Part shown: piece by piece, positions 3,027 through 62,868 of the stretch | How positions within the stretch are numbered: position 1 is the first letter of the stretch | How the letters are laid out: each line of letters begins with the position of its first letter | DNA from: Candidatus Omnitrophota bacterium | GTDB taxonomy: Bacteria; Omnitrophota; Gorgyraeia; Zapsychrales; JANLHA01 | Direction: 5' to 3' | NCBI GenBank assembly: GCA_020632535.1 | Contig: JACKFJ010000001.1 | Location: 282,890-346,889 of the forward strand | DNA: 64,000 nt | Program-made: the position numbers and the translations under genes | Notes under the pieces: generated by a model | Databases searched by the model: none | The model's input: only the letters and a program-made list of their open reading frames with translations | What the model was told of the DNA's origin: nothing

Positions 3027-3117
3027 TGAGCAAGAATGCTTGGTTTTTTGAATAAATATTACAAAATTTTTAAAACGCAGTATATAATATCCACTCATTT
3101 GTTTAAAGAAAAGAACT

Positions 3118-3846
3118 ATGTCGTTAAATCTCCTTGAAACTCGAAGTTTGACAAAAAGTTATAATGGTCGGCGTGTTGTTGATGGCTTGAGTATTTCTGT
3201 GGGGCGTTCGGAGATTGTGGGGATTTTGGGCCCCAATGGCGCGGGAAAGACCACGTCGTTTTATATGATTGTTGGGATCATCGCACCAGATTTTGGTCAG
3301 ATTCATTTTGACCAACTGGACATTACCAAAAATCCGATTCATGATCGTTGCAAGTTAGGCATGGGATACTTAGCGCAGGAGTCATCGATCTTTCGCAAGT
3401 TGACCGTCGAGGAAAATATTACGGCGGTTTTGGAAACATTAAATATCAGTCCACGCGAACGCAAAAAGCGTTTGGAGAGTTTGCTTGAAGAATTAAACAT
3501 CGCGCATTTGGCAAAGAATAAGGCGTACACACTATCAGGCGGTGAACGTCGGCGTTTGGAAATCACACGTGCTCTGGTGACAAATCCTTCATTTTTACTT
3601 TTGGACGAACCGTTTTCCGGTATTGATCCGATTGTTGTCGCAGAAGCGCAAGAAATCATCAAAGATTTAAAGAAAAAGGGACTAGGTATTTTGTTGACGG
3701 ATCATAATGTACGCGAAACTTTGTCGATTACGGATCGTGCGTATTTGGTTGCGGACGGCAAACTTTTGATATCAGGAACGGCAGAGGATTTGATCAATGA
3801 TCCTAAGGCCAAACAGATTTATCTCGGTGAAAAATTTAGAATGTAA
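3118..3846 (+). CDS. lptB: LPS export ABC transporter ATP-binding protein
   Basis: Walker A GPNGAGKTT, signature LSGGERRRLEI, Walker B LLLLDEP. The N-terminus is typical of LptB and the gene has lpt context. Confidence 0.9.
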   Translation: MSLNLLETRSLTKSYNGRRVVDGLSISVGRSEIVGILGPNGAGKTTSFYMIVGIIAPDFGQIHFDQLDITKNPIHDRCKLGMGYLAQESSIFRKLTVEENITAVLETLNISPRERKKRLESLLEELNIAHLAKNKAYTLSGGERRRLEITRALVTNPSFLLLDEPFSGIDPIVVAEAQEIIKDLKKKGLGILLTDHNVRETLSITDRAYLVADGKLLISGTAEDLINDPKAKQIYLGEKFRM

Positions 3847-3855
3847 AACTACACT

Positions 3856-3928
3856 TGTCATTCCCGCAATTTCTTAGTGGGAATCCATTTGAGTTTTGGA
3901 TCCCCGATAGAAGTATTCGGGGATGACA
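3856..3928. repeat. 73-bp double-hairpin palindromic element (TGTCATTCCC...GGGGATGACA)
   Basis: Terminal inverted TGTCAT/ATGACA. Hairpin ATTCCC-N13-GGGAAT (3860-3884) and hairpin TCCCCGA-N9-TCGGGGA (3901-3923). Lies between lptB and tig. Confidence 0.65.
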
Positions 3929-3959
3929 GAGGTTTAAAAATTAATAAGGAGTCAGAAAG

Positions 3960-4859
3960 ATGAAAGTTGCTGTTAAGAAAGTTGACGCATTAAAAAGAGA
4001 GTTATCGTTTGAAATCCCAAAAGATCGCGTTGCCAAAGCTCACGCGGAAATCATGCAGGAAATTTCTCGTGTTGCCAAAGTCAAAGGTTTTCGTCCCGGC
4101 AAAGCTCCGCGTCAAATCGTTGAAGCGGAACATGGTGCTTTAGCTCGTGAAGAAACAATTAAAAAACTTATCCCTGAAGTTTATCAGGAAGGTATTACGC
4201 AAGAGAAAATTGATACTCTCGATTTGCCGGAAATTCATGATGTGGAATTTAAGGATGGACTGATTCGTTTTACCGCGCATGTTGATATTAAACCCGAAAT
4301 CAAATTGGGCCAATATAAAGGAATCAAAGTCACACGCAAGAGTTCTAAAGTCACGGACGAAGAACTTAACAAAACTTTAGAGTATTTTAAAAAAGCACAA
4401 GGTGGGGAAAAGGAACAAGATATTAATGATGATTTTGTCAAAGGATTAGGTTATCCCAGTTTGGTAGAATTTAAGGAATCGTTGACCCGTCAAATGGAAC
4501 ATGACAAAGATCGTCAAAATCGTCTTGATGTCGAGCAGCAAATTGTCGACGCGCTTATTAAGGAAGCGAAGTTGGCTGTTCCGCAAAGTTTGGTCAAGCG
4601 TCAACTTGAACATCGTATGCATGAAACAATGCATCGCTTAAAAGAGCAAGGTATGCCCGAAGCCGACATTACCAAACGTGAAGCTGAAATGCGCACGGAA
4701 CTCGAGAAGACATCCGAAAAAGATGTCAAAGTGTATTTGATTTTGGATGCGATCGCGAAAGCAGAAGGTATTCATACTCATAATGAAAAAGAAAGTTTGC
4801 CGGCGAAAGTCATGGCGTTTTTATTAAAGGAAGCAAGCTGGGAAGAAGCAAAAATATAA
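3960..4859 (+). CDS. tig: trigger factor, short form (ribosome-binding N domain plus C-terminal chaperone arms; no PPIase domain)
   Basis: N-terminus contains GFRPGKAPRQIVE (TF signature). At 299 aa the sequence runs from the N-domain linker straight into C-domain-like sequence. SD AAGGAG lies upstream and clpP follows. Confidence 0.8.
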   Translation: MKVAVKKVDALKRELSFEIPKDRVAKAHAEIMQEISRVAKVKGFRPGKAPRQIVEAEHGALAREETIKKLIPEVYQEGITQEKIDTLDLPEIHDVEFKDGLIRFTAHVDIKPEIKLGQYKGIKVTRKSSKVTDEELNKTLEYFKKAQGGEKEQDINDDFVKGLGYPSLVEFKESLTRQMEHDKDRQNRLDVEQQIVDALIKEAKLAVPQSLVKRQLEHRMHETMHRLKEQGMPEADITKREAEMRTELEKTSEKDVKVYLILDAIAKAEGIHTHNEKESLPAKVMAFLLKEASWEEAKI

Positions 4860-4860
4860 T

Positions 4861-4939
4861 CGTTGTTGCGAGGAGCCCCGGTAGGGGTGACGTGGCAATC
4901 TACAAGAGATTGCTTTGGCCTTACGGCCTCGCAATGACA
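4861..4939 (+). repeat. intergenic nested-hairpin repeat, copy a (CATTGCGAG/GGCAATCT family)
   Basis: GTTGTTGCGAGG ... hairpin CCCC-GGTA-GGGG ... GACGTGGCAATCT-ACAAG-AGATTGCTTTG ... hairpin GCC-TTAC-GGC ... CCTCGCAATGACA. Confidence 0.75.
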
Positions 4940-4956
4940 CAATACAAGGAGTCATC

Positions 4957-5568
4957 ATGGAACCGATCTCACAATATTTAGTCCCGATGGTCGTCGAAAA
5001 AAGCGGACACGGCGAACGCGCTTACGACATATATTCCCGCTTGCTTAAAGATCGTATTCTTTTTATCGGTACTGCCATTGACGATAATGTTGCGAATTTG
5101 ATTATTGCGCAGCTTTTGTTTTTGCAAAGTGAAGATGCGACGAAAGATATTAATATTTACGTTAATAGTCCGGGTGGATCGGTTACGGCAGGTCTCGCGA
5201 TTTATGACACGATTCAATTTATCAAACCTGACGTGTGTACATATTGTATTGGTCAAGCGGCTAGTATGGGTGCAGTGCTGTTGGCAGCTGGTACCAAAGG
5301 CAAACGTTACTCGCTCCCGTATTCACGTATTATGATTCATCAACCGTGGGGTGGGGCACAAGGAACGGCCAGTGACATTTCAATTCAGGCCAAGGAAATT
5401 TTACGTATGAAAGAAGAGTTGACCAAGCTTTTGGCTCATCACACGGGTCAAAGCATAGAGAAAATCGCTGCCGATTCGGATCGTGATTTCTTTATGTCCG
5501 CGGAAGAATCTAAGAATTATGGACTTGTTGATGAGGTTTTGTTTACGGTTAAAGATAAAAAGAAATAG
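4957..5568 (+). CDS. clpP: ATP-dependent Clp protease proteolytic subunit
   Basis: Strong ClpP similarity ([28 protein letters not shown]). Start moved to ATG 4957 behind SD AAGGAG; the track start at 4915 reads through the repeat. Confidence 0.95.
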
Positions 5569-5588
5569 TTCGCCGAAAGGAAATAGAA

Positions 5589-6728
5589 ATGAAACGTACT
5601 TTGCTTTTAACTCCCGGCCCGACGCAAGTTCCAGCACGTTTATGTGAGGTTCTTGGGCGCCCGATTATTCATCATCGTACACCACAATTTCAGGCTTTTT
5701 TAAAAGAAGCTGTCGAAGGTTTAAAGTATGTCTTGAAAACACAGAATGATGTTTATGTTTTAGCTTCGTCGGGAACAGGCGCAATGGAAGCCAGTGTCGT
5801 TTCGTTGTTGTCTAGCGGTGATTCTGCCTTGGTCGTTGAAGGGGGCAAATTTGGTGAACGTTGGACTGAGCTGTGCAAAGCTTATGGTGTGAAAGCCACG
5901 GTCATTAAAGTGCAGTGGGGCAAAAGTGTTGACCCTGCTGAAATTAAGAAAGCGCTCGATGCTGATAAAAGCATCAAGGCGGTTTTTGTCACGCACAGCG
6001 AAACATCGACGGGTACCAATTCTGATATCGAAGGTATTGGTAAGGTTGTAAAGAATTGTGCCGCGGTTTTAGTTGTTGATGCGGTCAGTGGTTTGGGCGT
6101 GCAGGATTTACAAACTGATAATTGGCATGTCGATGTGGTGTGTTCAGCCGCACATAAAGGTTTGATGCTTCCTCCGGGGGTAGCTTTTATTTCAGTGAGT
6201 GCGAAAGCGGATGCTCTGATGGCTCAGTCGAAATTGCCAAAATATTATTTTGATTTACGCAAATATAAAAAGGCTTGGACACAAGTCGATACACCTTTTA
6301 CTCCTGCCATTGGCATTGTGATTGCGCTTGTAGAAAGCTTAAAAATGATTAAAGAAACCGGTATTGATAATATGCTTAGCCATTATGCTCGTCTCGCAAA
6401 AGCGACGCGCGCGGCGGCATTGGGATTAGGTTTGACACTTTTTGCTGATGAAAGCGCGATATCAAATGTTTTAACAGCTGTCAAACTCCCTGAAGGTATT
6501 GATGGCGATAAAGTCTTAAAGATGATGCGCGATACACACGGTATTTCTGTGGCGCCGGGACAGGATGCGATCAAAGGGAAAGTGATTCGTATCGCTCATA
6601 TGGGTGTGATTGATGAATATGATATTTTGACCGGCATTGCATGTTTGGAAAAAGTTTTAAAACAGTTAGGGCATAAATTTGAAATGGGTGCGGGTGTTGC
6701 CGCGGCACAAAAGGTTTTGAATCCGTAA
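5589..6728 (+). CDS. class V PLP aminotransferase, probable phosphoserine aminotransferase
   Basis: LTPGPT N-terminus and a SAAHKGL PLP-lysine region typical of the AGXT/short SerC family. Immediately upstream of serA. Confidence 0.7.
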   Translation: MKRTLLLTPGPTQVPARLCEVLGRPIIHHRTPQFQAFLKEAVEGLKYVLKTQNDVYVLASSGTGAMEASVVSLLSSGDSALVVEGGKFGERWTELCKAYGVKATVIKVQWGKSVDPAEIKKALDADKSIKAVFVTHSETSTGTNSDIEGIGKVVKNCAAVLVVDAVSGLGVQDLQTDNWHVDVVCSAAHKGLMLPPGVAFISVSAKADALMAQSKLPKYYFDLRKYKKAWTQVDTPFTPAIGIVIALVESLKMIKETGIDNMLSHYARLAKATRAAALGLGLTLFADESAISNVLTAVKLPEGIDGDKVLKMMRDTHGISVAPGQDAIKGKVIRIAHMGVIDEYDILTGIACLEKVLKQLGHKFEMGAGVAAAQKVLNP

Positions 6729-6748
6729 GGACAAGAAAGGTTATTTTT

Positions 6749-8332
6749 ATGAAGATTTTGATTAGCGATAAACTTGCCAGCGAAGGTATAGAAATTCTCA
6801 AGTCTGTAAAAGAATTTCAAGTTGACTTAAAAACAGGAATGTCGCCTGCCGAATTAAAAGCGATTATTAAAGATTATGACGCTTTAATCGTGCGCAGCGA
6901 AACAAAAGTTACTGCAGAGATTCTCGACGCTGCAGATAAACTCAAAGTCATTGGTCGCGCTGGGGTGGGCCTTGATAATGTTGATTTGGTCGCGGCAACA
7001 AAAAAGGGCGTTGTTGCCATGAATACACCCGCTGGGAATACCACGTCAACCGCAGAACATACGATGAGTTTGATTTTAGCGCTGTCACGTAATATTGCGC
7101 AAGCGGCTGCGTCGATGAAAAGTGGGCGTTGGGATCGTTCAAAATTCAGCGGTGTTGAAATTTATGGAAAAACTTTAGGGATTGTCGGACTTGGCCGTAT
7201 TGGCGCGACAGTCGCGAGTTTTGCAAAAGCCTTCGGTATGAAAGTTTTCGCGTTCGACCCGTTTTTATCAAAAGACGTGGCCGCTAAGATGGGTATCGAA
7301 ATTGTTGAGTTTGAAAAACTCATTAAAGATTCCGACTACATTACGGTTCATATTCCAAAGACGGAAGAGACGACAGATATTATCTCCGACAAGGAATTTG
7401 CTATGATGAAGAAAAATGCTCGCGTTCTAAATTGTGCGCGCGGCGGAATTATCAATGAAGCGGCGTTGGTTAGAGCTCTACAAGAGAAGCGTATTGCGGG
7501 TTGTGCTCTGGATGTTTTTGATGTTGAACCTTTGCCGGCAGATTCGCCACTTTTGAAATTTGACAATTGTATTATGACGCCTCATTTGGGTGCTTCCACA
7601 AGCGAAGCGCAAATCAATGTCGCCATTGAAATTGCTGAAACTGTAAAGAATGCGCTTTTGGGTCGTGGAATCATGAACGCGGCTAATTTCCCATCGTTAA
7701 GTGGAGAAGCTTATACGGTTCTTGCTCCGTATATTGATTTGTCGGAGCGCATCGGTAAATTTGCTGGTCAGTTGATTAATGGCCGTTTAAGCGGCGTAAA
7801 AATTACATATAGTGGCGTGGTTACCGAGTATAAATCCGCTCCGTTAACATTGTCTTTTGTTAAAGGCCTTTTGCTCCCGATTCTCGGTGAGACGGTCAAT
7901 TCAATTAACGCGATCGATGTGGCGCGTGAACGTGGCATTAATGTTCAAGAAGTCCAATCGAACGTTAAAGCTGAATTTGTTAATTTGGTCAACGTTGAAA
8001 TTACGACAGATAAAGAGACATTTACAGTTTGGGGAACGCTGTCTGCGAATCTTCAACCGCGTATCGTGCGTGTTAATAATGTCTACGTCGAAACGATGCC
8101 AAAGGGGCACATGCTGTTTATTAATAATAATGATAAGCCGGGTATCGTCGGTGGGGTGGGGACTGTTCTTGCCGAGAATAAAATTAATATTGCCGGTATT
8201 ACTTTAGGTCGTGAAGCGGCGGGCAAGCTCGCTATTAGTGTCGTAAATGTTGACAGTGAAGTACCACAGCCTGTGATTGAAAAAATCAAAGCTATGCCGA
8301 ATATTTTATTCGTTAAGCTGATCAAAGTTTAA
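6749..8332 (+). CDS. serA: D-3-phosphoglycerate dehydrogenase (long form with C-terminal ACT-type regulatory domain)
   Basis: NAD motif GIVGLGRIGATVA and 2-hydroxyacid dehydrogenase core. 527 aa with a C-terminal regulatory extension. Confidence 0.9.
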   Translation: MKILISDKLASEGIEILKSVKEFQVDLKTGMSPAELKAIIKDYDALIVRSETKVTAEILDAADKLKVIGRAGVGLDNVDLVAATKKGVVAMNTPAGNTTSTAEHTMSLILALSRNIAQAAASMKSGRWDRSKFSGVEIYGKTLGIVGLGRIGATVASFAKAFGMKVFAFDPFLSKDVAAKMGIEIVEFEKLIKDSDYITVHIPKTEETTDIISDKEFAMMKKNARVLNCARGGIINEAALVRALQEKRIAGCALDVFDVEPLPADSPLLKFDNCIMTPHLGASTSEAQINVAIEIAETVKNALLGRGIMNAANFPSLSGEAYTVLAPYIDLSERIGKFAGQLINGRLSGVKITYSGVVTEYKSAPLTLSFVKGLLLPILGETVNSINAIDVARERGINVQEVQSNVKAEFVNLVNVEITTDKETFTVWGTLSANLQPRIVRVNNVYVETMPKGHMLFINNNDKPGIVGGVGTVLAENKINIAGITLGREAAGKLAISVVNVDSEVPQPVIEKIKAMPNILFVKLIKV

Positions 8333-9651: not shown

Positions 9652-9757
9652 CACAGTTTTTTTTGTATCTTGTTGCGAGAGAAGAGATTTTGCTTTATGA
9701 ACTTGACTTTAAAAATCACCTATGTTAATTTGAAACAAACTTAAAGGAGGAAACACG

Positions 9758-26701: not shown

Positions 26702-27712
26702 ATGGACCTTCAAGATTTCGTTTACGACCTTCCCAAATCACTTATTGCGCAACATCCTTTGCCGAGGCGTGATCACGCGCGTCTGATGGTTATTGATCGC
26801 GCGGCGGGGACTATTCGTCACAGTCGCTTTGATGAGTTAGAAGCATTTTTACCACAGAAAAGTTTTTTTATACTCAATGACAGTAAGGTGATTCCGGCGC
26901 GCCTGTTTGGTCGTAAAGAGCGTAGCGATGGCATGGTCGAAATATTCTTACTCAAAAAGTTAATCGACGGGTATACTTATGAAGCGCTTTTGCGGCCAGC
27001 GAAGAAAATCCGCAGTGGTGATCGAATCAATTTTGAAAAGAGTTCGCTGTATGCAACGATTGTCGATGTTGACGCGCGATTGGTGAAATTTAATTATAAA
27101 AATATTATGCCGCATATTCAGCGTATTGGGCATATTCCTCTGCCGCCATATATTCGGCGGGATGATGAGAAATCGGATCATGAATTTTATCAAACTGTTT
27201 ATGCTAAGAATGCTGGGTCTGTCGCGGCGCCAACGGCGGGTTTGCATTTTACAAAGCCACATTTGCGAGCATTAGAAAAGAATGGGCATAAAATTCTTAG
27301 AACAACATTGCATGTGAATTACGCGACATTCAAAGCTGTTGAAGAAGAGGATGTCACGAAACACCACATGCATTATGAAAGCTATGAAATTTCAGCCGCT
27401 ACATTGCGTAAGATTAAGGCTAATCGTGCTGAAAATAAAAAGGCGATTGCCGTCGGAACAACAAGTTGCCGTGTGATAGAATCGGTGGCCAAGACCGGAA
27501 TATTAAAAGGGGAGACTAATCTTTTTATTTATCCGGGTTATCAATTTCGAATGACAGATGCTTTGCTCACGAATTTTCATTTGCCGTATAGTTCATTGTT
27601 GATGCTCGTTTTTGCATTTGGCGGAATGGATTTATTAAAGCGTGCGTACAACCAAGCGATTGAAAAAAAGTACCGTTTTTTTAGTTACGGTGATTGTATG
27701 TTGCTTCTATAA
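26702..27712 (+). CDS. queA: S-adenosylmethionine:tRNA ribosyltransferase-isomerase
   Basis: FDYDLP-like N-terminus (FVYDLPKSLIAQHP), GSVAAPTAGLHFT and VGTTSCR motifs. Confidence 0.95.
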   Translation: MDLQDFVYDLPKSLIAQHPLPRRDHARLMVIDRAAGTIRHSRFDELEAFLPQKSFFILNDSKVIPARLFGRKERSDGMVEIFLLKKLIDGYTYEALLRPAKKIRSGDRINFEKSSLYATIVDVDARLVKFNYKNIMPHIQRIGHIPLPPYIRRDDEKSDHEFYQTVYAKNAGSVAAPTAGLHFTKPHLRALEKNGHKILRTTLHVNYATFKAVEEEDVTKHHMHYESYEISAATLRKIKANRAENKKAIAVGTTSCRVIESVAKTGILKGETNLFIYPGYQFRMTDALLTNFHLPYSSLLMLVFAFGGMDLLKRAYNQAIEKKYRFFSYGDCMLLL

Positions 27713-27716
27713 CTAT

Positions 27717-28956
<1,240 letters not shown>

Positions 28957-42041: not shown

Positions 42042-42832
42042 CCGAAAAAGAATTAATGTTAACTGCGATTTTAGAGTGTGACCGAAGCAATCTTTATGCA
42101 CAACCTACTCCGTTATCAGCTCAACAGACAGAAAAATTGCAAGATATGGAAGAGCGTCGTCGTCGCAATGAACCCTTGCAATATATTCTCAGGACAACGG
42201 ATTTCTTCGGATTGAAATTTAAAGTGGACCCCCGTGTTCTCATTCCTCGCCCAGAAACAGAACTTCTTGTTGAAAAAATTATTGAGTTTTCTTCTCGCCA
42301 ACATGGAGCGCAATTGCGGATTCTCGATGTTGGGACTGGTTCAGGTAATATCGCGATTGCTTTGGCAAAATCTTTTATTCAAGCTCGCATTGTTGCGATG
42401 GATATTTCGTCTGATGCTTTAAATGTAGCCCGTGAAAATGCTCGCATTAATTGCGTGAACCATCAGGTTGATTTTGTACATTGCGACTTTATGGAATTTG
42501 CTGAGAATTATCGTGAGGCAGAAAAACGCTTTGATATAATAGTTTCCAATCCTCCGTATATTGCAACGCCATTGCTTGCGACTTTACCGTTGGATGTTAA
42601 AGAGGAGCCTAATCTCGCCTTAGATGGAGGGGAAGATGGCTTGGATTTTTATCGTGTCCTTATTGGGCACGCAAAGTATTTTTTGAATGATGGCGGATTT
42701 CTCGCTTGCGAGATTGCGGATGGGCAGAAGAAAAGTCTAACCCAGTTGCTTGCGGACAATCATTTTACGAACTTCACTTTTTATAATGACTTTCGCGAGA
42801 CACCAAGATTTTTCTTAGCTCAGGCAATATGA
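42038..42832 (+). CDS. prmC: release factor glutamine N5-methyltransferase
   Basis: SAM motif [11 protein letters not shown] and catalytic NPPY. Confidence 0.9.
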
Positions 42833-42903
42833 GAAATTTTATAAAGACGACGTGACGATCGTAGATGATTGCCACCGCAGTATAAAATAAAGGATAATCG
42901 CTC

Positions 42904-44163
42904 ATGGACAAATTGGTTATTGAAGGCGGGAAAAAGCTTAAAGGTGAAATCCGCGTAAGCGGTTCTAAGAATTCAACCTTACCTATTCTTGCGGCAACAC
43001 TTCTGACCGACGAGAAGTGTGTTATTCGCAATGTACCTAAATTGCGTGACACATTGACAATGATTAAATTATTGCGGTCATTGGGAAAAAGTGTTGACTA
43101 CAACAATAATATCGCAGTTATCAGTGGTCCTGCGAATAGCTCGACGGCGGAATATAAGCTTGTTTCTACCATGCGGGGGTCATTTTGTGTCATGGGGCCG
43201 TTACTAGGAAAGTTCAAAACCGCTAAAGTTTCTTTACCCGGTGGATGCGTCATTGGAATTCGTCCTGTCGATTTGCATATCAAAGGCTTCAAAGCGCTTG
43301 GTGCTAAAATTGAAGTTGCCGCCGGTTATGTCATTGCGACCGCGCGTCAACTCAAAGGCAACTTGATTTATCTTGGTGGCATTTTTGGCCCATCTGTTTT
43401 AGCCACTGGGAATGTCATGATGGCGGCAGTTTTGGCTCATGGTGAAACAATTATTGAAAGTGCGGCGTGTGAACCGGAAGTTGAAGAACTCACCGAATTC
43501 TTAATCAAGATGGGCGCGCATATTGAGGGTAAAGGCACGTCGCGTTTAGTGATACGTGGTGTAAAGCGATTGCATGGTGCCGAGTATGACATTGGACCTG
43601 ATCGAATTGAAGCTGGAACATTTGTGCTTATGGCCGCGGCAACCGGAAGCACGTTGACTTTAAAGAATGTTAAATATGCGCAGCTTCTCGTTTTAATGGA
43701 TCGACTTGAACACGCGGGCGTTAAATTTAAAAAGGGCAAGGATTCATTAACGATCATTGGTCCGAAGAAATTAAAACCGGTCAGTGTTACGACATATCCT
43801 TATCCGGGTTTTCCGACAGATTTGCAAGCTCAATTTATGGCGCTGATGGCTATTACTCAAGGTGTGAGTGTAATTACCGATAAGGTTTTTCCCGACCGCT
43901 TTATTCATATCGCGGAATTAAATCGTATGGGTGCTAATATCCGTCGTGATAGCGGAGTTGCGATTGTGGAAGGTGTTAAATATCTTTATGGCGCTCCGGT
44001 TATGGCTTCTGATTTGCGTGCTTCCGCGGCGTTAGTTTTAGCTGGGTTAGCGGCGAAGGGCAAAACAGAAATTCATCGTATTTATCATTTAGAACGTGGT
44101 TATGAAAATATTGATGAGAAATTAAAAAAAGTCGGCGCTGTTATTTATCGTGAGAAAGAATAA
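42904..44163 (+). CDS. murA: UDP-N-acetylglucosamine 1-carboxyvinyltransferase
   Basis: GSKNSTLPILAA, LPGGCVIGIRPVDLH (active-site Cys) and FPTDLQAQ motifs. Confidence 0.95.
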   Translation: MDKLVIEGGKKLKGEIRVSGSKNSTLPILAATLLTDEKCVIRNVPKLRDTLTMIKLLRSLGKSVDYNNNIAVISGPANSSTAEYKLVSTMRGSFCVMGPLLGKFKTAKVSLPGGCVIGIRPVDLHIKGFKALGAKIEVAAGYVIATARQLKGNLIYLGGIFGPSVLATGNVMMAAVLAHGETIIESAACEPEVEELTEFLIKMGAHIEGKGTSRLVIRGVKRLHGAEYDIGPDRIEAGTFVLMAAATGSTLTLKNVKYAQLLVLMDRLEHAGVKFKKGKDSLTIIGPKKLKPVSVTTYPYPGFPTDLQAQFMALMAITQGVSVITDKVFPDRFIHIAELNRMGANIRRDSGVAIVEGVKYLYGAPVMASDLRASAALVLAGLAAKGKTEIHRIYHLERGYENIDEKLKKVGAVIYREKE

Positions 44164-44167
44164 CTGA

Positions 44168-44282
44168 TCCATTGCGAGCCACAGAAAACGTAAATTGTTT
44201 TTAGGAAGAGCTTTGATGTGGCGCGGCAATCTTTTAGAGATTGCTTCGTCGCCATGAATAATTGAACGGCTCATCGCAATGG
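44168..44282 (+). repeat. intergenic nested-hairpin repeat, copy c (long form)
   Basis: TCCATTGCGAGCC (44168-80) ... GGCGCGGCAATCT-TTTAG-AGATTGCTTCGTCGCC (44220-44253) ... GGCTCATCGCAATGG (44268-82). Confidence 0.75.
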
Positions 44283-44294
44283 TTGGAGACATCA

Positions 44295-44867
44295 ATGCTG
44301 CTTATTATCGACAATTACGATTCTTTTACATACAACTTGGTTCAGTATTTTGGCGAGTTGAAAGCAAGCATGAAGATTTTTCGTAATGATGCATTGACGA
44401 TTGAAAAGATTCGTCGTTTAAAACCGTCTCGGATTGTGATTTCACCGGGACCCGGTCGTCCGGAGGACGCAGGGATTTCTGTAAATGTCATTAAGAGTTT
44501 TAGTGGTAAAGTCCCGATTTTGGGTGTGTGTCTGGGTCATCAGGCTATTGGTTACGCGTTTGGTGGTAAAATTATTGGGGCTAAGCATTTGATGCACGGT
44601 AAAACATCTTTGATTGAACATGCTGGAACGGATATTTTTAAGAATTTGGAAGTTCCGTTTGAAGCTACCCGTTATCATTCACTTGTCATTGACCCGAAGT
44701 CTTTGCCGGATTGTCTTGAAGTGACAGCTTGGACGAAGGACAAGGATAAGGAAATTATGGGTATTCGTCACAAAAAAATCCCACTATGGGGTGTCCAATT
44801 TCATCCTGAATCTATTCTCACCAAAGCCGGAATGGGAATTTTAAAGAATTTCCTGAAAATTTCATAA
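44295..44867 (+). CDS. trpG: anthranilate synthase component II / aminodeoxychorismate synthase glutamine amidotransferase
   Basis: [16 protein letters not shown]-terminus and triad region GVCLGHQ ... QFHPES. Start at ATG 44295 behind GGAG; the track TTG at 44262 is inside the repeat. Confidence 0.9.
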
Positions 44868-44868
44868 T

Positions 44869-45885
44869 ATGGATCGATATATTCATATATTGCAGGATCG
44901 TCAAGATTTAAGCGAAAGCGAAATTGCGACGGTAATGCACCTGATCATGTCCGGCAAAGCGCCGAAGGAAGCTTTGGGGAGATTTTTATTGGCTTTGAAT
45001 CTCAAAGGTCCTACCGTCGATGAAATTACGGGTGCTGCCAAAATGTTGCGCCAGTTTTCACTTGAAGTTAAAACGAAACATAAGGTTGTCCTCGATACGT
45101 GTGGTACGGGTGGAGACAAGAAAAATACTTTTAATATTTCCACGATCACAGCTTTTGTTGTTGCGGGTACGGGTGTTGTTTTAGCCAAGCATGGGAATCG
45201 TTCCGTTTCAAGTCGTTGTGGGAGTGCTGATGTTTTGGAAGCCCTTGGTGTAAATCTCGATGTTAAACAGGAACATTTGGGTGAATGTTTGGACAAAGTT
45301 GGGATTGCGTTTCTTTTCGCACAAAAACTTCATCCAGCGATGAAAAACGTTGCGCCGGTTCGAAAGGATCTTGGCGTCGAAACAATCTTTAATATTCTAG
45401 GACCACTCTTGAACCCGGCAAAAGCGACACATCAAATGATGGGTGTTTATAATCGTGATTATGTTGAACCATTGGCGAGGGTTTTGAAGAATTTGGGTTT
45501 GCGGCGAGCTTTGGTTGTGTATGGCAGCGATGGACTCGATGAAGTCACGACCACAGCAAAGACCTTTGTTAGTGAGTATAATGGCAAAGAGATTTTAAGT
45601 TATGATATTGATCCTAAAGAATTAGGATTGAGTTTGGCGCAAGAATCTGATCTTAAGGGTGGTGATTTGCCCGAGAATGCCGCAATTGCCCTTGATATTT
45701 TGATGGGAAAGTCTGGCCCAAGAAGAGATATTGTTGTTTTAAATGCGGCGTGTGCTTTGTATTGCGCGGAAAAAGTTTCAGCAATTTCTGACGGTATTGT
45801 TCTTGCAAAGCAATCGATTGACAGTGGTAAGGCTATGAAGAAGTTGGAAGAATTGATCGCCTTCACGCAAGGATTAAAGACGTGA
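44869..45885 (+). CDS. trpD: anthranilate phosphoribosyltransferase
   Basis: DTCGTGGD, KHGNRSVSS and GPLLNP motifs. Confidence 0.95.
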   Translation: MDRYIHILQDRQDLSESEIATVMHLIMSGKAPKEALGRFLLALNLKGPTVDEITGAAKMLRQFSLEVKTKHKVVLDTCGTGGDKKNTFNISTITAFVVAGTGVVLAKHGNRSVSSRCGSADVLEALGVNLDVKQEHLGECLDKVGIAFLFAQKLHPAMKNVAPVRKDLGVETIFNILGPLLNPAKATHQMMGVYNRDYVEPLARVLKNLGLRRALVVYGSDGLDEVTTTAKTFVSEYNGKEILSYDIDPKELGLSLAQESDLKGGDLPENAAIALDILMGKSGPRRDIVVLNAACALYCAEKVSAISDGIVLAKQSIDSGKAMKKLEELIAFTQGLKT

Positions 45886-46670
45886 AAAGGGATTTCTTAA
45901 AAGAGATCGTCGCTTATAAAAGAGAGCTTCTAGAGCAAAAAAGCGGGTATTATGGTGCCCTTAAGAAAAATGTTAAGACGACACCGCATAGTCGGTATGG
46001 CCTTTTTAAGAAAGCGATCAGTAATCCTGGTCGTGTGAATTTGATCGCAGAGATTAAGAAAGCTTCGCCTTCAGTTGGAATTATCCGAGAGCCCTTTGAT
46101 TTGAATGGATTGGCACGAACATATAAGGAAAACGGCGCGGCGGCGATTTCTGTTTTAACGGAGGATAAGTATTTCTTGGGTAAACCAACGTATGTCCGTC
46201 GGGTCTGTGAAGAAGTTGCGATGCCTGTTTTAACAAAGGATTTTATTATTGATGAACATCAGATTTATGAAACATTTTGTCAAGGATCAAGCGCTGTTCT
46301 TTTGATTGTCGCGATTTTAGACGACGCTTTGTTGAAAGATTTGATGCAAATTGCCGCGGATTTAGATATGGATTCTCTTGTTGAAGTTCATGATGAAGCT
46401 GAGTTGCAGCGAGCGCTGAAAGTTGGGGCAGATATTATCGGAATTAATCATCGCAATTTGGCGACATTAGCAATTGATTTGTCCGTTAGCGAAAAACTCG
46501 TTTCGCAAATTCCGCGCGGAAAAGTAATTGTTGCGGAGAGTGGAATTAAAACGAACGAAGAAATTAAGCAATTGCAATCTTTGGGAGTCCATGCTGTTTT
46601 GATTGGGGAAAGTTTTTTGCGATCCGCTGATGTTGGAGCGAAAGTTAGAGAAATCATGGGAGTAAAATAG
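45882..46670 (+). CDS. trpC: indole-3-glycerol phosphate synthase
   Basis: IAEIKKASPS, LTKDFIID and GINHRNL motifs. Confidence 0.95.
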   Translation: MKRDFLKEIVAYKRELLEQKSGYYGALKKNVKTTPHSRYGLFKKAISNPGRVNLIAEIKKASPSVGIIREPFDLNGLARTYKENGAAAISVLTEDKYFLGKPTYVRRVCEEVAMPVLTKDFIIDEHQIYETFCQGSSAVLLIVAILDDALLKDLMQIAADLDMDSLVEVHDEAELQRALKVGADIIGINHRNLATLAIDLSVSEKLVSQIPRGKVIVAESGIKTNEEIKQLQSLGVHAVLIGESFLRSADVGAKVREIMGVK

Positions 46671-46743
46671 TTTAGCAATTCCTGCAGGATTACTAAATTA
46701 TTTTTAAATATGGAAGCAGGAAGTCGAAAGGATTTAAAAATAA

Positions 46744-47376
46744 ATGTTAAAAGCAAAAATTTGTGGAATGACAGATTCGAAAGATGCCCTTTTGGCCGCG
46801 TCATTGGGCGCGTGGGCTGTTGGGTTCATTTTTTATAAAAAAAGTAAGCGATTTGTCGGGCCGTATAAGGCTAAGAAAATCATTTCTGATTTGCCGCCAT
46901 TTGTCACACCAGTTGGTGTCTTTGTCGATCAAAAACAGGGAGCCGTTAAGGAGATCGCGGAGTTTTGTGGATTAAGGGTTTTACAATTCCATGGTAATGA
47001 AACGCCCGATTTTTGTAAGCGGTTTGATACGTACAAAATTATTAAAGCCTTTCGTGTTGGCGAAGCATTTAACATTGATCTTTTGCGTCCTTACAAGTCG
47101 ATTGTCAGTGCTTTTCTTTTTGATCGTCATGAAGAGGGCGTGCAAGGTGGAACAGGAAAAACATTTGATTGGAAGTTGATTAAGGAAGCAAAGAATTTTG
47201 GTGTACCGATTATTCTTTCTGGTGGAATTCATTCCAATAATGTTCGCACGGCGTTTGAGGAAATTGGTCCGTACGCGGTGGATTTATCTAGCGGTGTTGA
47301 GGATGCGCCGGGCAAGAAGAGTGAGCGTTCTATGACCGAGTTTTTTAAACAACTTGTTCTTCCAGTATCTATTTAG
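46744..47376 (+). CDS. trpF: phosphoribosylanthranilate isomerase
   Basis: KICGMT N-terminus, LQFHGNE and LSGG...VDLSSGVE motifs. Confidence 0.9.
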   Translation: MLKAKICGMTDSKDALLAASLGAWAVGFIFYKKSKRFVGPYKAKKIISDLPPFVTPVGVFVDQKQGAVKEIAEFCGLRVLQFHGNETPDFCKRFDTYKIIKAFRVGEAFNIDLLRPYKSIVSAFLFDRHEEGVQGGTGKTFDWKLIKEAKNFGVPIILSGGIHSNNVRTAFEEIGPYAVDLSSGVEDAPGKKSERSMTEFFKQLVLPVSI

Positions 47377-47414
47377 TCTTTCGTAAGTTATTGCTGGCCT
47401 TTGGTTTTGTGCTC

Positions 47415-47443
47415 TTGTGGAGTTCAAATGCATATGCTATCTT
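47415..47443 (+). promoter_or_regulatory. candidate promoter for the structured RNA
   Basis: TTGTGG (47415-20), 17-nt spacer, TATCTT (47438-43). The predicted start near 47450 coincides with the 5' edge of the closing helix. Weak match, so low confidence. Confidence 0.35.
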
Positions 47444-47449
47444 TGGATT

Positions 47450-47680
47450 AAGCCGATAAAGGCAAACCCGCCGAAAGACGGGGACGTCCCGTAAGGGACC
47501 GCGGCGTCTAATCGGACGACGTGGCAAAGCTACAGGCCTAAATTGTCTTCAAACCAGGAAGGCCCCCTAGCTGTGGGCAGTGTGTAGACACGGTGAAGGT
47601 GAAGGGACAATAAGGTGGCTGAGTTGCCGAAGAGAGGTACTGGCGGCATAGGTTGCTGCCGGCTTTATCGGCCCTCTTTT
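47450..47680 (+). ncRNA. structured RNA of unknown class (about 230 nt, plus a terminator)
   Basis: No plausible ORF in a 382-bp gap. 10-bp closing helix 47452-61/47663-72. Tandem GNRA hairpins at 47467-82 (GAAA) and 47486-99 (GUAA), with further hairpins at 47502-21, 47581-92, 47616-29 and 47642-60. A canonical terminator follows immediately. Boundaries are approximate. Confidence 0.6.
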
Positions 47681-47712
47681 CCCTTAAGTGATTAAGGGAT
47701 TTTTTATTTTTT
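47681..47712 (+). terminator. intrinsic terminator
   Basis: CCCTTAA-GTGA-TTAAGGG hairpin followed by ATTTTTTATTTTTT. Confidence 0.85.
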
Positions 47713-47741
47713 AAGGAAATTCGCTGCATATTTTTCTCTTA

Positions 47742-47750
47742 TGTTATAAT
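47742..47750 (+). promoter_or_regulatory. extended -10 box TGTTATAAT, 7 nt before ATG 47758 (a leaderless transcript is implied)
   Basis: TGnTATAAT at 47742-50. The 7 nt before the ATG are ACCCCCC, with no SD. Confidence 0.5.
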
Positions 47751-47757
47751 ACCCCCC

Positions 47758-48060
47758 ATGTCAGAAAAACTTTTACGTGTTTATAAGCCTTTTGATCTGA
47801 GTAAGGTTAAAGAGCATCTTTTGATTTACGGTGATTTGTCAGGGCAATGCAGTCATTGTCAGAATATGGACGTGAAACTGGAAATGGTTTCCTGCCCGAA
47901 TTGTCGAACAGATTTTCGTTATATCGCCTTCCGCAATGTTCAGCATCACATGCCTAAAATTGTGAATATTAATCTTAACCGCCAAGATTTGACGATTATT
48001 GACTATGATGATTTTAGTCGTACGTTGGGGGCTAAAAAAGCAGAGGATTTTTTTAAATGA
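47758..48060 (+). CDS. hypothetical zinc-ribbon protein (CxxC-x15-CxxC)
   Basis: 100 aa with CSHCQ...CPNC. The stop overlaps the next start (ATGA at 48057). No family recognised. Confidence 0.6.
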   Translation: MSEKLLRVYKPFDLSKVKEHLLIYGDLSGQCSHCQNMDVKLEMVSCPNCRTDFRYIAFRNVQHHMPKIVNINLNRQDLTIIDYDDFSRTLGAKKAEDFFK

Positions 48061-49193
48061 TTAATGATAAACGTTTGATTAAATTAACACAAAAGGTTCT
48101 CAGCTATAATTCTGAAAATCCGCCGGGGAATGAATTGGCTTTAGCAGATTTTATTGAAAAAGACATGCGTTCATTGGGGATTGACGTTAAAATTCATACT
48201 TTTGCAAAAAACCGGCCCAATATTATTGCGACGCTTAAAGGAAAAGGTCCTCATGCCGCTAAAGATTCCGTTCTTTTAACGCCGCATTTTGATACAGTCC
48301 CCATTGGCAGCGGTTGGAAATTTGACCCGCTGGGTGGACAGATTAAAGGTGGCAAAATTTATGGTCGCGGGGCGAGTGATGATAAGGGGAATTTAGCCTG
48401 TTGTATGGAAGTGATGAGGAGTTTGGTTGAAGACAAAGTGATTTTAAAACGTGATATCATTATGGCCGCGACTGTCGACGAGGAAACAGGCAGCAAGGCG
48501 GGCATTATTCCTTTGCTTGATAAGAAGATTTTGAAACCGGGTTATGGTTTGATTGTCGATTCGGACGAGTTTTATACAATCATTTGTCAAAAAGGTTTGT
48601 TGCACACGCGCGTTCAGATTTTTGGAAAAAAAGCGCATGGCGCGTACAATTGGCGCGGTGTCAATGCGATTGAACAGGCGAGTAAAGTAATACAGCTTTT
48701 GAAAGCTCATCAATTTAAATATAAGAAGCATGCCATTTTGCATCCACCAACGATGAATATTGGGACGATTCGTGGAGGCGATAAGGTCAATATGGTTGCC
48801 GATTTTTGTGAATTTTCGTTGGATACTCGCTTTTTACCGGGTATGAAATCAAGTGATGTTGTAGCAGAAATTAAATCGATTGTTCGAAAAGTCACGCCAA
48901 AATTTAAAATTATTATTGATGATTTACAGCAGCCGTATGAAATTGCGCCAAATCATCCTTTTGTCCGCACATACGTCGATACCGCTAAGAAAATGAAAAT
49001 TCACGCTGAAGTCAAGGGTAGTGAAGGCGCGACGGTTATTACGTTTTTCAAGAAGCATGGGATTCCTGCTTTCGCGACGGGGTATGGTGCTCGAGGGACG
49101 GCGCATACGACAGATGAATACGCTAAAGTGAATACCTTGATAAAAGGCGCTAAGTTAATGGAAAGATTTATTAAAGATTTTGATCGGACATAA
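48057..49193 (+). CDS. M20-family metallopeptidase (ArgE/DapE-like deacylase)
   Basis: LLTPHFDTVP, GRGASDDKG and ATVDEETGS metal-ligand motifs of M20A enzymes. Confidence 0.85.
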   Translation: MINDKRLIKLTQKVLSYNSENPPGNELALADFIEKDMRSLGIDVKIHTFAKNRPNIIATLKGKGPHAAKDSVLLTPHFDTVPIGSGWKFDPLGGQIKGGKIYGRGASDDKGNLACCMEVMRSLVEDKVILKRDIIMAATVDEETGSKAGIIPLLDKKILKPGYGLIVDSDEFYTIICQKGLLHTRVQIFGKKAHGAYNWRGVNAIEQASKVIQLLKAHQFKYKKHAILHPPTMNIGTIRGGDKVNMVADFCEFSLDTRFLPGMKSSDVVAEIKSIVRKVTPKFKIIIDDLQQPYEIAPNHPFVRTYVDTAKKMKIHAEVKGSEGATVITFFKKHGIPAFATGYGARGTAHTTDEYAKVNTLIKGAKLMERFIKDFDRT

Positions 49194-49194
49194 T

Positions 49195-49938
49195 ATGAAA
49201 ACGATTGTGTTTGGTTTTCTTGGGGTATTTGTATTGGCTACATCTGTACAAGCCGCGAATGATTTGTCGGATTTTATCGGTGAAAAAATCACATATTCGA
49301 TTAAGCAAATGGGTGTGAAAGCTGGTGAAGCAACGTTAAGTTATGAAGGTCCAGCTTTTAAGGAAACGAAAGATTACCTTCTTATTGTTTTCAAAGCTGA
49401 TGGATTTAATTTTATGGATACAGAAATGATTTACGCTGATCCGCAGACACTTTTACCACAAATTGTCGTCCGTGATCTTAATATTTTTGGCAAGAAAGAA
49501 CAGATCACCGAATATTACGATACGCAAAAAGGAACCGTGAGAATTGTTAAAACAGTTTCCGGTACAACGACAGAGGAGACGATTAATAAAAAAGGCATGA
49601 TTGACAATATTTATTGCTTTATTTATCGTTATCGTCGTGACGGCGAGTTTAAGGTTGGGGAGACAATCGCCATTTTTTTGCCGACAATGGATTTGAATAT
49701 TAAGGTGGAAAATAAGCGCAATTTATCGACAGCTGGGAAGAAGTATGACGCCATTTTTATGCAAAGTACGCCGTCGAAATACAAGTTGTGGTTTGACGCC
49801 AACGCTGGGAAAATTCCTTTGCGTATTGATGGCGCTGTCGGTGTTGGGAGTACGTCGATGACAATGACAAGCTATGAATCCAAACGCGCGTACGCTTTAA
49901 ATCACACAGGACTTGAATTCAATGTCAGTGCCCGATAA
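49195..49938 (+). CDS. secreted DUF3108-like protein
   Basis: Signal peptide [20 protein letters not shown] and a beta-rich sequence resembling my recollection of DUF3108. The start lies 2 nt after the M20 stop, and the 3' end overlaps the trpB start. Confidence 0.6.
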
Positions 49939-51100
49939 ATCAGGTCATTTTGGTGAGTTTGGTGGCAAGTATGTTCCCGAGACTTTGATGTCGGTTTTAG
50001 AGGAATTGGAAACAACTTTCACGAAAGCTCGCAAAGACAAAAAGTTTAAGGATGAATTTGCGTATTATTTGAAAGAGTATGCCGGTCGTCCAACAAATTT
50101 GTATCTCGCTAAGCGTCTTACCAGTCAATTCAAAAATCTCAAAATTTATTTAAAGCGCGAAGATTTGCTTCATACTGGCGCGCACAAAATTAATAATACG
50201 TTGGGTCAAATTATTTTAGCCAAGCGAATGGGTAAAAAGCGGATCATTGCCGAGACTGGTGCTGGTCAGCATGGCGTTGCGACCGCGACTGCGGCGGCGC
50301 TTTTTGGATTGCAGTGTGAGATTTACATGGGCGCGGAAGATATCAATCGTCAGTCGCTCAATGTTTTTCGTATGAAGCTTATGGGCGCTAAAGTTATTCC
50401 GGTTACAAGTGGCTCAAAAACACTTAAAGATGCGATGAATGAAGCTATCCGCGATTGGGTCACGAATGTTCGTAATACGTTTTATATCATCGGATCTGTT
50501 GCCGGTCCACATCCGTATCCTTTGATGGTTCGTGAATTTCAATCAGTGATTGGTCGCGAAGCTCGTCGACAATTTCGGGCTAAAGAAAAGCGGCTGCCAA
50601 GCTATCTGGTCGCGTGTGTTGGCGGGGGTAGTAATGCCATGGGTTTATTTCATGCTTTTTTTAATGACACACAAGTTAAAATTATTGGTGTTGAAGCCGC
50701 TGGTCACGGATTACAAAGTGGGGAACATTCTGCCGCGATATGTGCCGGACAAACCGGAGTTTTGCATGGTAGTAAAAGTCAATTATTACAGACATCCGAA
50801 GGTCAGGTCAAAATTGCACATTCGATTGCCGCTGGTTTGGATTATCCCGGTGTTGGGCCGGAACATTCGTACTATAAGAAAATTGGTCGCGCGGATTATG
50901 TTGGTGTCACGGATAAAGAAGCTATCATCGGATTGAAATTGCTATCTCAGACGGAAGGGATTATTCCCGCGCTTGAAACGAGTCATGCGATTGGATATTT
51001 GTCACGTCTTGATAGTAAAGCCAAGAAGAATTCGACAGTTATCGTCTGCCTTTCGGGACGAGGGGACAAAGATGTGAACACGATGAAGGAATTGATATAG
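49922..51100 (+). CDS. trpB: tryptophan synthase beta chain
   Basis: [24 protein letters not shown] (PLP lysine) and GGGSNAMG motifs. The start is ATG 49922 or TTG 49913; both overlap the upstream gene. Confidence 0.95.
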
Positions 51101-51108
51101 AAACTTTT

Positions 51109-51188
51109 TGTCCATTGCGAGAAGTCCTGCAGGGACGACGTGGCAATCTTAAATAGATTGCTTTGTCACTGCGTTGCTCGCAATGGCA
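51109..51188 (+). repeat. intergenic nested-hairpin repeat, copy d (most complete)
   Basis: TGTCCATTGCGAG (51109-21); hairpin GTCC-TGCAG-GGAC (51124-36); GACGTGGCAATCT (51137-49)-TAAAT-AGATTGCTTTGTC (51155-67); CTCGCAATGGCA (51177-88). Confidence 0.8.
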
Positions 51189-51199
51189 GGTATAGGATA

Positions 51200-52000
51200 A
51201 TGCAAAATAGAATTGACAAAAAATTCGCGGAATTAAAGAAGAAAGGCCAAAAAGCTTTTATTGCTTTTGTCACGGCCGGTGATCCTGATCTCGAAACGAC
51301 GGTTGATTTGGTTCGTGGTTTTGAGAAAGCGGGTGTTGATATCGTCGAGTTAGGTGTGCCTTTTTCGGATCCCTTAGCGGACGGGCCGATTATTCAAGCC
51401 GCTTCCCAGCGTGCATTATCAAATGGAACAACAATCCCTAAGATTTTTGCGGCTGTACGCGCAATCCGTCAGTTTTCAGAAATTCCTCTTGCCTTAATGA
51501 CGTATTACAATCCTGTTTTTCATTATGGTGAATCTAATTTTGTTAAAGATGCAAAAGCTGCCGGCGTTGATGGCATCATTGTTCCGGATTTGCCTCCGGA
51601 AGAAGCCAAAACTTTGATCGCAATGAGCCGCAAGTCTGATTTTGCGACCGTGTTTTTTTTGTCGCCAACAACGACAGATCGCCGAATTAAAAAGATCGTC
51701 AATGCTTCCACAGGTTTTATTTATTATGTTTCTCTAACGGGAGTAACGGGAACTCAGCAAGGTTTGCCCAAGGATATTATTGAGCGTATTAAGAAAGTCA
51801 AACGTGCCACAAACATGCCGATTTGTGTTGGCTTTGGTGTTTCCACCGCTCAAGACGTTCAATTGATTAGCCGTGTCGCGGACGGTGTTATTGTGGGGAG
51901 CGCAATTATCAATGAAATCCAAAAGCATAAGGATTCGGCGGCTTTAACTCCGTTGATTGTAAAATTTGTTCAACAGTTGTCCTCAAATCTGAAGGAATAG
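51200..52000 (+). CDS. trpA: tryptophan synthase alpha chain
   Basis: FVTAGDPD, ELGVPFSDPLADGP and YVSLTGVTG motifs. Start at ATG 51200 behind AGGA; the track start at 51140 reads through the repeat. Confidence 0.95.
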   Translation: MQNRIDKKFAELKKKGQKAFIAFVTAGDPDLETTVDLVRGFEKAGVDIVELGVPFSDPLADGPIIQAASQRALSNGTTIPKIFAAVRAIRQFSEIPLALMTYYNPVFHYGESNFVKDAKAAGVDGIIVPDLPPEEAKTLIAMSRKSDFATVFFLSPTTTDRRIKKIVNASTGFIYYVSLTGVTGTQQGLPKDIIERIKKVKRATNMPICVGFGVSTAQDVQLISRVADGVIVGSAIINEIQKHKDSAALTPLIVKFVQQLSSNLKE

Positions 52001-55871: not shown

Positions 55872-55950
55872 TAAATGTGGCCTCGAATATTGAAACTCGA
55901 TTACGAGAAGTCTTGTAGCGATGACAAAGCAATTTTAACTAAATTCATTT

Positions 55951-62769: not shown

Positions 62770-62807
62770 TTTTCGTGTTTTCTGTGCGCTCTTTCCCTCT
62801 AATTTAT

Positions 62808-62854
62808 ATGAACAAATATTAAGAAAGCAAAAAGCTTTCTTAATATTTGTTCAT
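62808..62854. repeat. perfect 21-bp-stem hairpin
   Basis: ATGAACAAATATTAAGAAAGC-AAAAA-GCTTTCTTAATATTTGTTCAT. It ends 14 nt before the gpmI ATG. Confidence 0.85.
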
Positions 62855-62868
62855 TGAAAAGGATTTTA

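Follow-up and report, generated by a model that had tools for sequence, protein, structure and literature searches.

The stretch of DNA analyzed here (the window) comprises 64 kb of a Candidatus Omnitrophota MAG and carries four full copies, a to d, of one structured palindromic element. Copy d, an 80-bp element at positions 51109-51188 of the plus strand, lies in the gap between trpB (stop codon TAG, 51098-51100) and trpA (start codon ATG, 51200). Its outer inverted repeat, TGTCCATTGCGAG/CTCGCAATGGCA, provides the two arms of a stem, P1 (5' arm, 51109-51121; 3' arm, 51177-51188), between which follow the small hairpin P2 (GTCC-TGCAG-GGAC; 51124-51136), the conserved hairpin P3 (51139-51165) with the core GACGTGGCAATCT-TAAAT-AGATTGCTTTGTC, and a linker with P4 (51166-51176). 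This is exactly the nested-hairpin architecture that the first-pass annotation of this DNA had read from its sequence. A covariance model, R1, built from 86 copies that all come from other genomes, scores copy d at 57.3 bits (E value of 5.5e-13), and the predicted RNA fold of the copy has an energy of -39.5 kcal/mol (z score of -4.7 against shuffles).

Copy a (4861-4939, plus strand; 55.5 bits) sits between tig (stop codon TAA, 4857-4859) and clpP (start codon ATG, 4957). It has a clean four-way fold consisting of P1, P2 (GCCCC/GGGGT), P3, and P4 (GGCC/GGCC), with two G-U pairs in P1 on the plus strand and an energy of -39.7 kcal/mol (z score of -5.4). Copy c (44167-44283, plus strand; 38.9 bits) occupies the gap between aroA (stop codon TAA, 44161-44163) and trpG (start codon ATG, 44295); its P2 and P4 are enlarged, and it folds with -43.8 kcal/mol (z score of -3.5). 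A compensated P1 variant, CCATTGCGAG/..GCAATGG, is common to copies c and d, and this change from U-A to C-G is unique among the 86 aligned sequences. Copy b (about 27715-27801, minus strand) lies between queA (stop codon, 27710-27712) and tgt (start codon ATG, 27817, in agreement with the 379-amino-acid NCBI protein). Copies a and c were recovered where the first-pass annotation had placed them, by both the covariance model and a pattern search. Copy b is inverted, as had been noted, and its far arm extends past the earlier end point of 27775 to approximately 27801. This copy is partly decayed, the degenerate arm being the one on the side adjoining tgt; it scores 27.9 bits on the minus strand versus 15.1 bits on the plus strand, and its minus strand folds with -28.3 kcal/mol (z score of -3.0). 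Taken together, the RNA folds of a, c, d, and minus-strand b range from -28 to -44 kcal/mol, with z scores from -3.0 to -5.4.

All four copies are intergenic, the neighboring genes having been assigned by Pfam. Each begins 1 to 8 nt past a stop codon and ends 11 to 17 nt before the true start codon of the next gene, a space with room for a Shine-Dalgarno sequence alone; the earlier description of the copies as intergenic and close to the next start codon fits all four. The N-terminal open reading frame (ORF) extensions beginning at TTG 4915, TTG 27763, TTG 44262, and GTG 51140 were rightly called spurious, as all four start codons lie inside copies. For this genome, the element is mostly an annotation issue of these four extensions, and R1 is suited to masking such elements ahead of gene calling in MAGs.

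How complete is this set of copies? The pattern GGCAATCT-N5-AGATTGC, with up to 2 mismatches allowed, matches 4 loci (8 strand hits) in the window, while the shuffled window gave a mean of 0.22 hits and none of 100 shuffles reached 8. In an unfiltered search of the entire window, R1 recovered only copies a, b, c, and d, and every other match had 15 bits or fewer and an E value of at least 0.1. Of three degenerate traces proposed earlier, the one at 55899-55936 stands. It belongs to a decayed half copy at 55897-55945 (plus strand) in the argS-recJ spacer, which retains the left half of the element (P1 5' arm, P2, and P3 5' arm), is identical to copy d at 38 of 49 positions, and is the top-scoring noncopy window of the 64 kb, about 8 standard deviations over the mean. 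The covariance model missed it because the right half is absent. The other two traces are not supported as family members: the one at 42846-42878 lies in a spacer whose ortholog is also present in a related genome (L111, see below), and the one at 9668-9695 has only a 10-nt word in common with the element.

Distribution across bacterial phyla

A scan of 185,579 species-representative genomes with the pattern CGYGGCAATCT-N5-RGATTGCTTYG found the core on at least 109 MAG contigs from about 12 phyla, the calculated number of chance matches being below 1. The first-pass annotation had suggested that uncultivated lineages commonly contain similar CATTGCGAG...GGCAATC palindromes, and the scan bears this out; the copies found in other genomes also keep the architecture, with both outer arms present around the core in 105 of 117 hits among the matches listed. 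These listed matches include the Patescibacteria (Parcubacteria, Berkelbacteria, Gottesmanbacteria, Levyibacteria, and Saccharibacteria), Planctomycetota, Omnitrophota, Atribacterota, Alpha- and Gammaproteobacteria, Treponema, Chloroflexota/Dehalococcoidia, Clostridia, Melioribacteraceae, Thermodesulfovibrionales, Aerophobetes, and Acidiferrales, and many of the loci among them hold 2 to 7 copies per 8 kb. A plasmid search gave only five hits, all unannotated, and a cyanobacterial plasmid adds one more group. Cultivable carriers among the hits are Methylosinus, Novosphingobium, and Aulosira species. In IMG/VR viral contigs, the exact core had no hits and a relaxed pattern found 13 loci; given this rarity, phages are not an obvious carrier. 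A metagenome scan for the P1 variant specific to copies c and d, in which filled and empty alleles were sought, returned one unrelated degenerate match. Judged by its sequence, the element family spans phyla and is not lineage specific, and its core is conserved.

Some of these loci have arrangements of their own. A Melioribacteraceae MAG contig (CBDUTO010000141.1; L068, positions 2990-7179) carries seven copies in approximately 4 kb. They fill almost all intercistronic gaps in a string of co-directional genes, one or two per gap, have the same orientation as the genes, and include two tandem pairs with about 6 nt between the copies. At another locus (L007, approximately 5060-5200), a complete element sits in the P3 apical loop of another copy (GGCAATCT-ttttcaat-[element]-atta-AGATTGC), an arrangement that is direct evidence of nesting. 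The sole contig labeled as archaeal (L004, "Bathyarchaeota") shares many homologous ORFs with a gammaproteobacterial contig (L057), and because of these shared genes it is probably misbinned bacterial DNA; we do not count it as an archaeal occurrence. The element copies of these two contigs have a single-base difference.

Folding, covariation, and the absence of target-site duplications

To describe the fold, we aligned 86 copies from other genomes among the matches listed (alignment A2). The element ranges in size from 65 to 115 bp. P1 is a 12-bp outer stem, YGTCATTGCGAG/CTCGCAATGACR, which is 96.5% paired over the 86 copies, and its terminal pair covaries (UA in 29 copies, CG in 22, UG in 13, and CA in 9). 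P3 is a conserved inner hairpin, CGYGGCAATCT-N5-RGATTGCTTCG, with an invariant Y.T mismatch and a G.T pair near its base and a closing pair that is T-A or T.G; its conservation is partly built in, as the search pattern imposed much of it. Relaxed hits have 6 to 9 nt between GCAATC and GATTGC and keep the pairing, for example as CCAG...CTGG. The side hairpins P2 and P4 differ between genomes in sequence and length and track the GC content of the host. P2 retains its pairing through exchanges (GC 23/CG 19 and, at 17/34, GC 39/CG 17) or has the alternative of tandem G.A/A.G pairs, and 60% of copies have a standard pair at the single modeled closing pair of P4 (CG 40, GC 7).

Over the whole structure, both-side changes occupy 87 cells versus 37 in shuffles, and none of 500 shuffles reached as high a number. 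Hence, pairing is kept while the sequence drifts, and we conclude from this covariation that the constraint acts on a folded single strand. The top strand, as set by the asymmetry of P3, has 35 G.T versus 16 A.C oppositions and folds slightly better than the bottom strand (-37.7 versus -34.2 kcal/mol; p = 5e-12). Because the element is a palindrome and both strands fold well, covariation does not separate folding as single-stranded DNA from folding as RNA. About 45 core nucleotides are nearly unchanged across a dozen phyla.

These data bear on the proposal that the element is a classical miniature inverted-repeat element (MITE), i.e., an internally deleted insertion sequence that moves as double-stranded DNA by means of a DDE transposase binding to the 12-bp terminal inverted repeats. 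The element resembles bacterial MITEs such as Correia/NEMIS, ERIC, RUP, and Nezha in its length of 65 to 115 bp, its terminal inverted repeats, and its nonautonomous, multicopy nature, and also in that such MITEs are cotranscribed with neighboring genes and may form RNA hairpins. Moreover, its 12-bp terminal inverted repeats are perfect, about half of the copies start with TG and end with CA, and it is noncoding and polymorphic for presence and absence. However, target-site duplications of 2 to 9 bp, a check suggested by the first-pass annotation, did not exceed the shuffled-flank control at any of three boundary offsets in 104 copies. The terminal base pair covaries (UA/CG) as in a stem, and the side hairpins keep their pairing despite changes in sequence and length, which cut-and-paste movement of double-stranded DNA does not need; the element also differs from known MITEs in these structurally constrained internal hairpins and in having no known parent insertion sequence. 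Neither a gene-bearing version nor a transposase was seen near the 109 loci. In addition, no target motif was found in the flanks of the copies, and an all-versus-all BLAST comparison of the ORFs in the 8-kb pieces around the 109 loci revealed no recurrent neighboring protein, the largest cluster covering 9 loci. We consider a classical MITE quite improbable. Of the earlier description as a noncoding MITE/REP/BIME-like family, the multicopy and structured character holds, and the MITE part falls with the missing target-site duplications.

Empty junctions in relatives and possible roles in mRNA

The first-pass annotation had also proposed to compare orthologous junctions, and in the closest relatives these junctions are without the element. 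The closest relative found is another Omnitrophota MAG (L111), with 87% identity in TrpA and the same gene order from prfA to deoC. Here, trpB and trpA overlap (TGATG) with no element between them, and the aroA-trpG gap is just 6 nt long. The trpB and trpA genes overlap in a 78% relative (L113), too, and in an 84% relative (L130) the queA-tgt junction is an empty spacer of 33 nt. A counterpart of the decayed half copy at 55897-55945 is absent from the corresponding 50-nt spacer of L111. When R1 was run on the syntenic DNA of relatives with 76 to 87% protein identity (43 kb plus 62 kb, approximately 105 kb), it found no copy, which contrasts with 4 copies in the 64-kb window. As these 105 kb of the relatives' DNA contain no copy, we take the window copies as lineage-specific insertions; parsimony and the usual coupled arrangement of overlapping trpB and trpA genes lead us to infer that they are gains. 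The choice of insertion over precise loss is an argument from parsimony and from the ancestral trpB-trpA overlap; the filled and empty flanks are too diverged (87% protein identity) for the events to be reconstructed. The insertions would physically uncouple the trp, tig-clpP, and queA-tgt gene pairs. What our comparisons add to the earlier description, at the level of sequence, is that the insertions are lineage specific and presumably recent and that the family is conserved across phyla.

Other structured spacers occur at the same junctions. In an 85% relative (L128, 9896-9978), the queA-tgt gap holds a different, GC-rich nested palindrome with outer arms CGCTCGGGT...ACCCGAGC. Together with the bare spacer of L130 and copy b of the window, this palindrome suggests that unrelated structured insertions land repeatedly in the gaps between a stop codon and a ribosome-binding site. 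In a 76% relative (L114, 2516-2597), trpB and trpA are separated by 82 nt of G-rich GGGGTTAG/GGGTTGG-like repeats that are unrelated to the element; this telomere-like spacer could form a G-quadruplex. The 72-nt prmC-aroA spacer (window 42832-42904; L111, 1858-1930), which includes an imperfect hairpin, GACGACGTGACGATC...GATTGCCACCGC, is conserved in both genomes and could be a native aroA leader or a very old remnant of the element.

Does the element regulate the genes next to it? It lies directly upstream of start codons, and two of its copies are in the trp/aro gene string, as might be expected of a cis-regulatory leader (an attenuator or a riboswitch-like RNA) for trpA and the other downstream genes. 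However, the genes downstream are unrelated in the window (clpP, tgt, trpG, and trpA) and arbitrary in other phyla, and the close relatives lack the element. Furthermore, it is the stems that are conserved and not the junctions or loops. There are no terminator/antiterminator features and no match in Rfam: at gathering thresholds, the only hit in the whole window was a c-di-GMP-I riboswitch elsewhere, and a permissive search around copy d (E values up to 10) found nothing better than an E value of 1.6. A scan of 44000-52000 detected nothing terminator-like at copies c and d, and the four window copies do not qualify as intrinsic terminators, as they have no U-tract and the sequence past the 3' arm is the Shine-Dalgarno region. 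Nor did Pfam contain a family for the translations of the element. A sigma-54 promoter (TGGCA...TTGC) was rejected as well, the spacing from GG to GC being 18 nt and not 12. Finally, one window copy is inverted, and across genomes the orientation is even. With the elements masked, 33 of 90 classified copies have the same orientation as their co-directional neighbors and 33 have the opposite one, with 15 further copies between convergent genes and 9 between divergent genes. An apparent bias of 26:14 was gone after this masking and was an artifact of ORFs that extended into elements. The 33:33 orientation makes a strand-specific cis-acting RNA role unlikely, and we regard a leader as an extremely improbable explanation.

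The main rival to a mobile element is a shape-dependent role in RNA. According to this explanation, the element is a host-beneficial RNA "punctuation" in which a coaxial stack of P1 and P3 of about 24 bp serves as an RNase III/E site or as a barrier to 3' exonucleases. It would set differential stability and uncouple the translation of neighboring cistrons, and it would be retained, and perhaps spread, for this function. The window copies are consistent with such a role in that all of them lie in co-directional operons, right behind a stop codon and shortly before the next start codon, and the gaps of the Melioribacteraceae contig are nearly all filled with co-oriented copies. The folds are very stable, transcription should read through them as they have no terminator tail, and the near identity of the two strands makes the 33:33 orientation compatible with a role that depends on shape. 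Yet close relatives run the same operons without the element, 24 of the 90 classified copies are flanked by convergent or divergent genes, and a function of shape alone leaves the near-invariant stem sequences across phyla unexplained. We consider RNA punctuation unlikely as the reason for the existence of the element.

Relation to known repeats and possible mobility

We favor the view, with fair confidence, that the element is a small noncoding, nonautonomous mobile element of the REP/REPIN kind. Like REP and REPIN sequences, which RAYT (TnpA-REP) HUH transposases mobilize, it is a short, noncoding, imperfect palindrome of high copy number that is found between the genes of operons, follows an inverted-doublet logic, and makes no target-site duplication; REPs and REPINs, like other HUH-type substrates, have been proposed to act as folded single strands. 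REP elements stabilize upstream mRNA in E. coli, and a REP-like effect of the element on mRNA decay or processing is possible. There are also differences. The GTAG tag of REPs is absent from the consensus, whose 5' end is YGTC instead, and the element is 2 to 3 times longer, with a multibranch interior. REP sequences are species or genus specific and are inherited vertically with a RAYT, whereas the core of the element is nearly invariant in about 12 phyla. A RAYT gene flanked by repeats was not seen in the 64 kb analyzed here or in the 8-kb pieces from other genomes.

The closest likeness is probably to the orphan CGTC-tagged REPs, and on the basis of the sequence features below we file the element as a distinct compound variant. 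As set out in the accessible part of their description, the CGTC-tagged REP superfamily, which includes Neisseria dRS3 and Rickettsia RPE-4/RPE-6, has a CGTC or TGTC tag, an 8- to 9-bp stem beginning with AT, a loop of 4 to 5 nt, and an unpaired 3' tail that is mostly CCA; its members form inverted pairs, occur in several phyla at mostly intergenic positions, and are called orphans, without a transposase (Di Nocera, De Gregorio & Rocco 2013, BMC Genomics 14:522, PMC3733652). As far as this account goes, the element shares with them the 5' end YGTC-ATTGCGAG, with an 8-bp stem after the tag that starts with AT, as well as the inverted-pair layout, the mostly intergenic position, the occurrence in several phyla, and the lack of a linked transposase at 109 loci. 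At position -1 of the element, 42 of 104 copies have C and 55 have T, and an invariant GTC follows. Unlike in the CGTC-tagged REPs as described there, the tag is base paired with a 3' GACR, and the stem ATTGCGAG/CTCGCAAT encloses 35 to 90 nt of structured interior (P2, P3, and P4). The simple hairpin form GTCATTGCGAG-N2-20-CTCGCAATGAC was found in none of 127 loci. Read as two inverted units, the element is a dimer, YGTC-AT[TGC]...[GCA]AT-CTN / NRG-AT[TGC]...[GCA]AT-GACR, in which the pairing within a unit is only 5 bp (ATTGC/GCAAT); the positions after GCAAT read CTN in most copies and CCA(G) in some (for example, in L067 and in copies on viral contigs). Peptides predicted from the element (RFARND, LLAMT, and VIARSEA) are absent from the supplementary lists of PMC3733652.

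A full-text literature search with the arm sequences and peptide words, which covered text outside figures and subscription journals, gave only primers and noise and no description or name, and nothing further came from follow-up papers on the CGTC-tagged REPs. The element has surely been seen before, since its translations (...RFARND..., ...LLAMT...) are presumably common among junk "hypothetical proteins."

We hypothesize that a trans-acting enzyme would recognize and move a folded single strand of the REP-like element, a hairpin of single-stranded DNA; candidates for this mobilizer are a recombinase and a transposase of the HUH/RAYT type. Copies would persist only at tolerated positions, in the few bases that separate a stop codon from the Shine-Dalgarno sequence of the following gene. 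At trpB-trpA, a spacer of about 100 nt would have taken the place of the overlap of stop and start codons that provides translational coupling in the relatives. In the polycistronic mRNA, this spacer is predicted to fold with approximately -40 kcal/mol, and translation of trpA would depend on a ribosome-binding site of its own.

Repeats of the REP type are normally passengers of a resident RAYT and specific to a species, and a core that crosses phyla raises the questions of what moves the element, how phyla were crossed, and whether a conserved host protein constrains the core. For REPs, it is unusual that the core is conserved across phyla, the small-genome Patescibacteria among them, and this could alternatively reflect a host-beneficial function. 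A further explanation is that a host protein or recombinase uses the element as its DNA site, with four ATTGC/GCAAT half-sites in two nested palindromes, for example, a site for a Xer-like or other tyrosine recombinase in folded single-stranded DNA, or a nucleoid- or gyrase-binding site like those of BIMEs; the bound protein would be either the mobilizer of the element or its user. The invariant sequence is concentrated in four related half-sites (TCATTGC, GGCAATC, GATTGC, and GCAATGA), P3 has a conserved, asymmetric imperfection at its base, and the element is found in small-genome Patescibacteria, in which dedicated transposases are presumably few. However, the distance between the inner half-sites ranges from 6 to 9 nt with the pairing kept, which fits a hairpin and not a duplex core with a fixed spacer, and no candidate protein was found. 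We rate such a DNA site as very doubtful.

A related and more speculative idea, which we think is rather unlikely to be correct, joins movement with a host factor: the element would be a pan-bacterial, transposase-less hairpin whose nested core of four half-sites (ATTGC/GCAAT) is read, in folded form, by a widely conserved host enzyme. The candidates would be a housekeeping tyrosine recombinase, a nuclease, or a repair protein. If true, this would explain why bacteria ranging from Patescibacteria to Proteobacteria have a near identical core but side hairpins that drift with host GC content, and it would provide a mechanism for the long-unexplained orphan CGTC-type REPs. Being well defined and easy to search for, the element lends itself to tests of how orphan palindromic repeats spread.

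The window contains further structured features. The c-di-GMP-I riboswitch lies at 47451-47631 on the plus strand (40.6 bits versus a gathering score of 35) and is followed by a terminator-like hairpin with a T-run at 47680-47699. Downstream of it are a 100-amino-acid ORF with no Pfam hit, an M20/M28 peptidase gene, and a DUF3108 gene. This gene group is wedged between trpF and trpB in the trp string, and the same arrangement is present in L111. In addition, two strong local inverted repeats that are unrelated to the element family lie at 614-711 and 62803-62859; one has perfect arms of 22 nt that are 54 nt apart, and the other has AT-rich arms of 26 nt (92% complementary) that are 5 nt apart.
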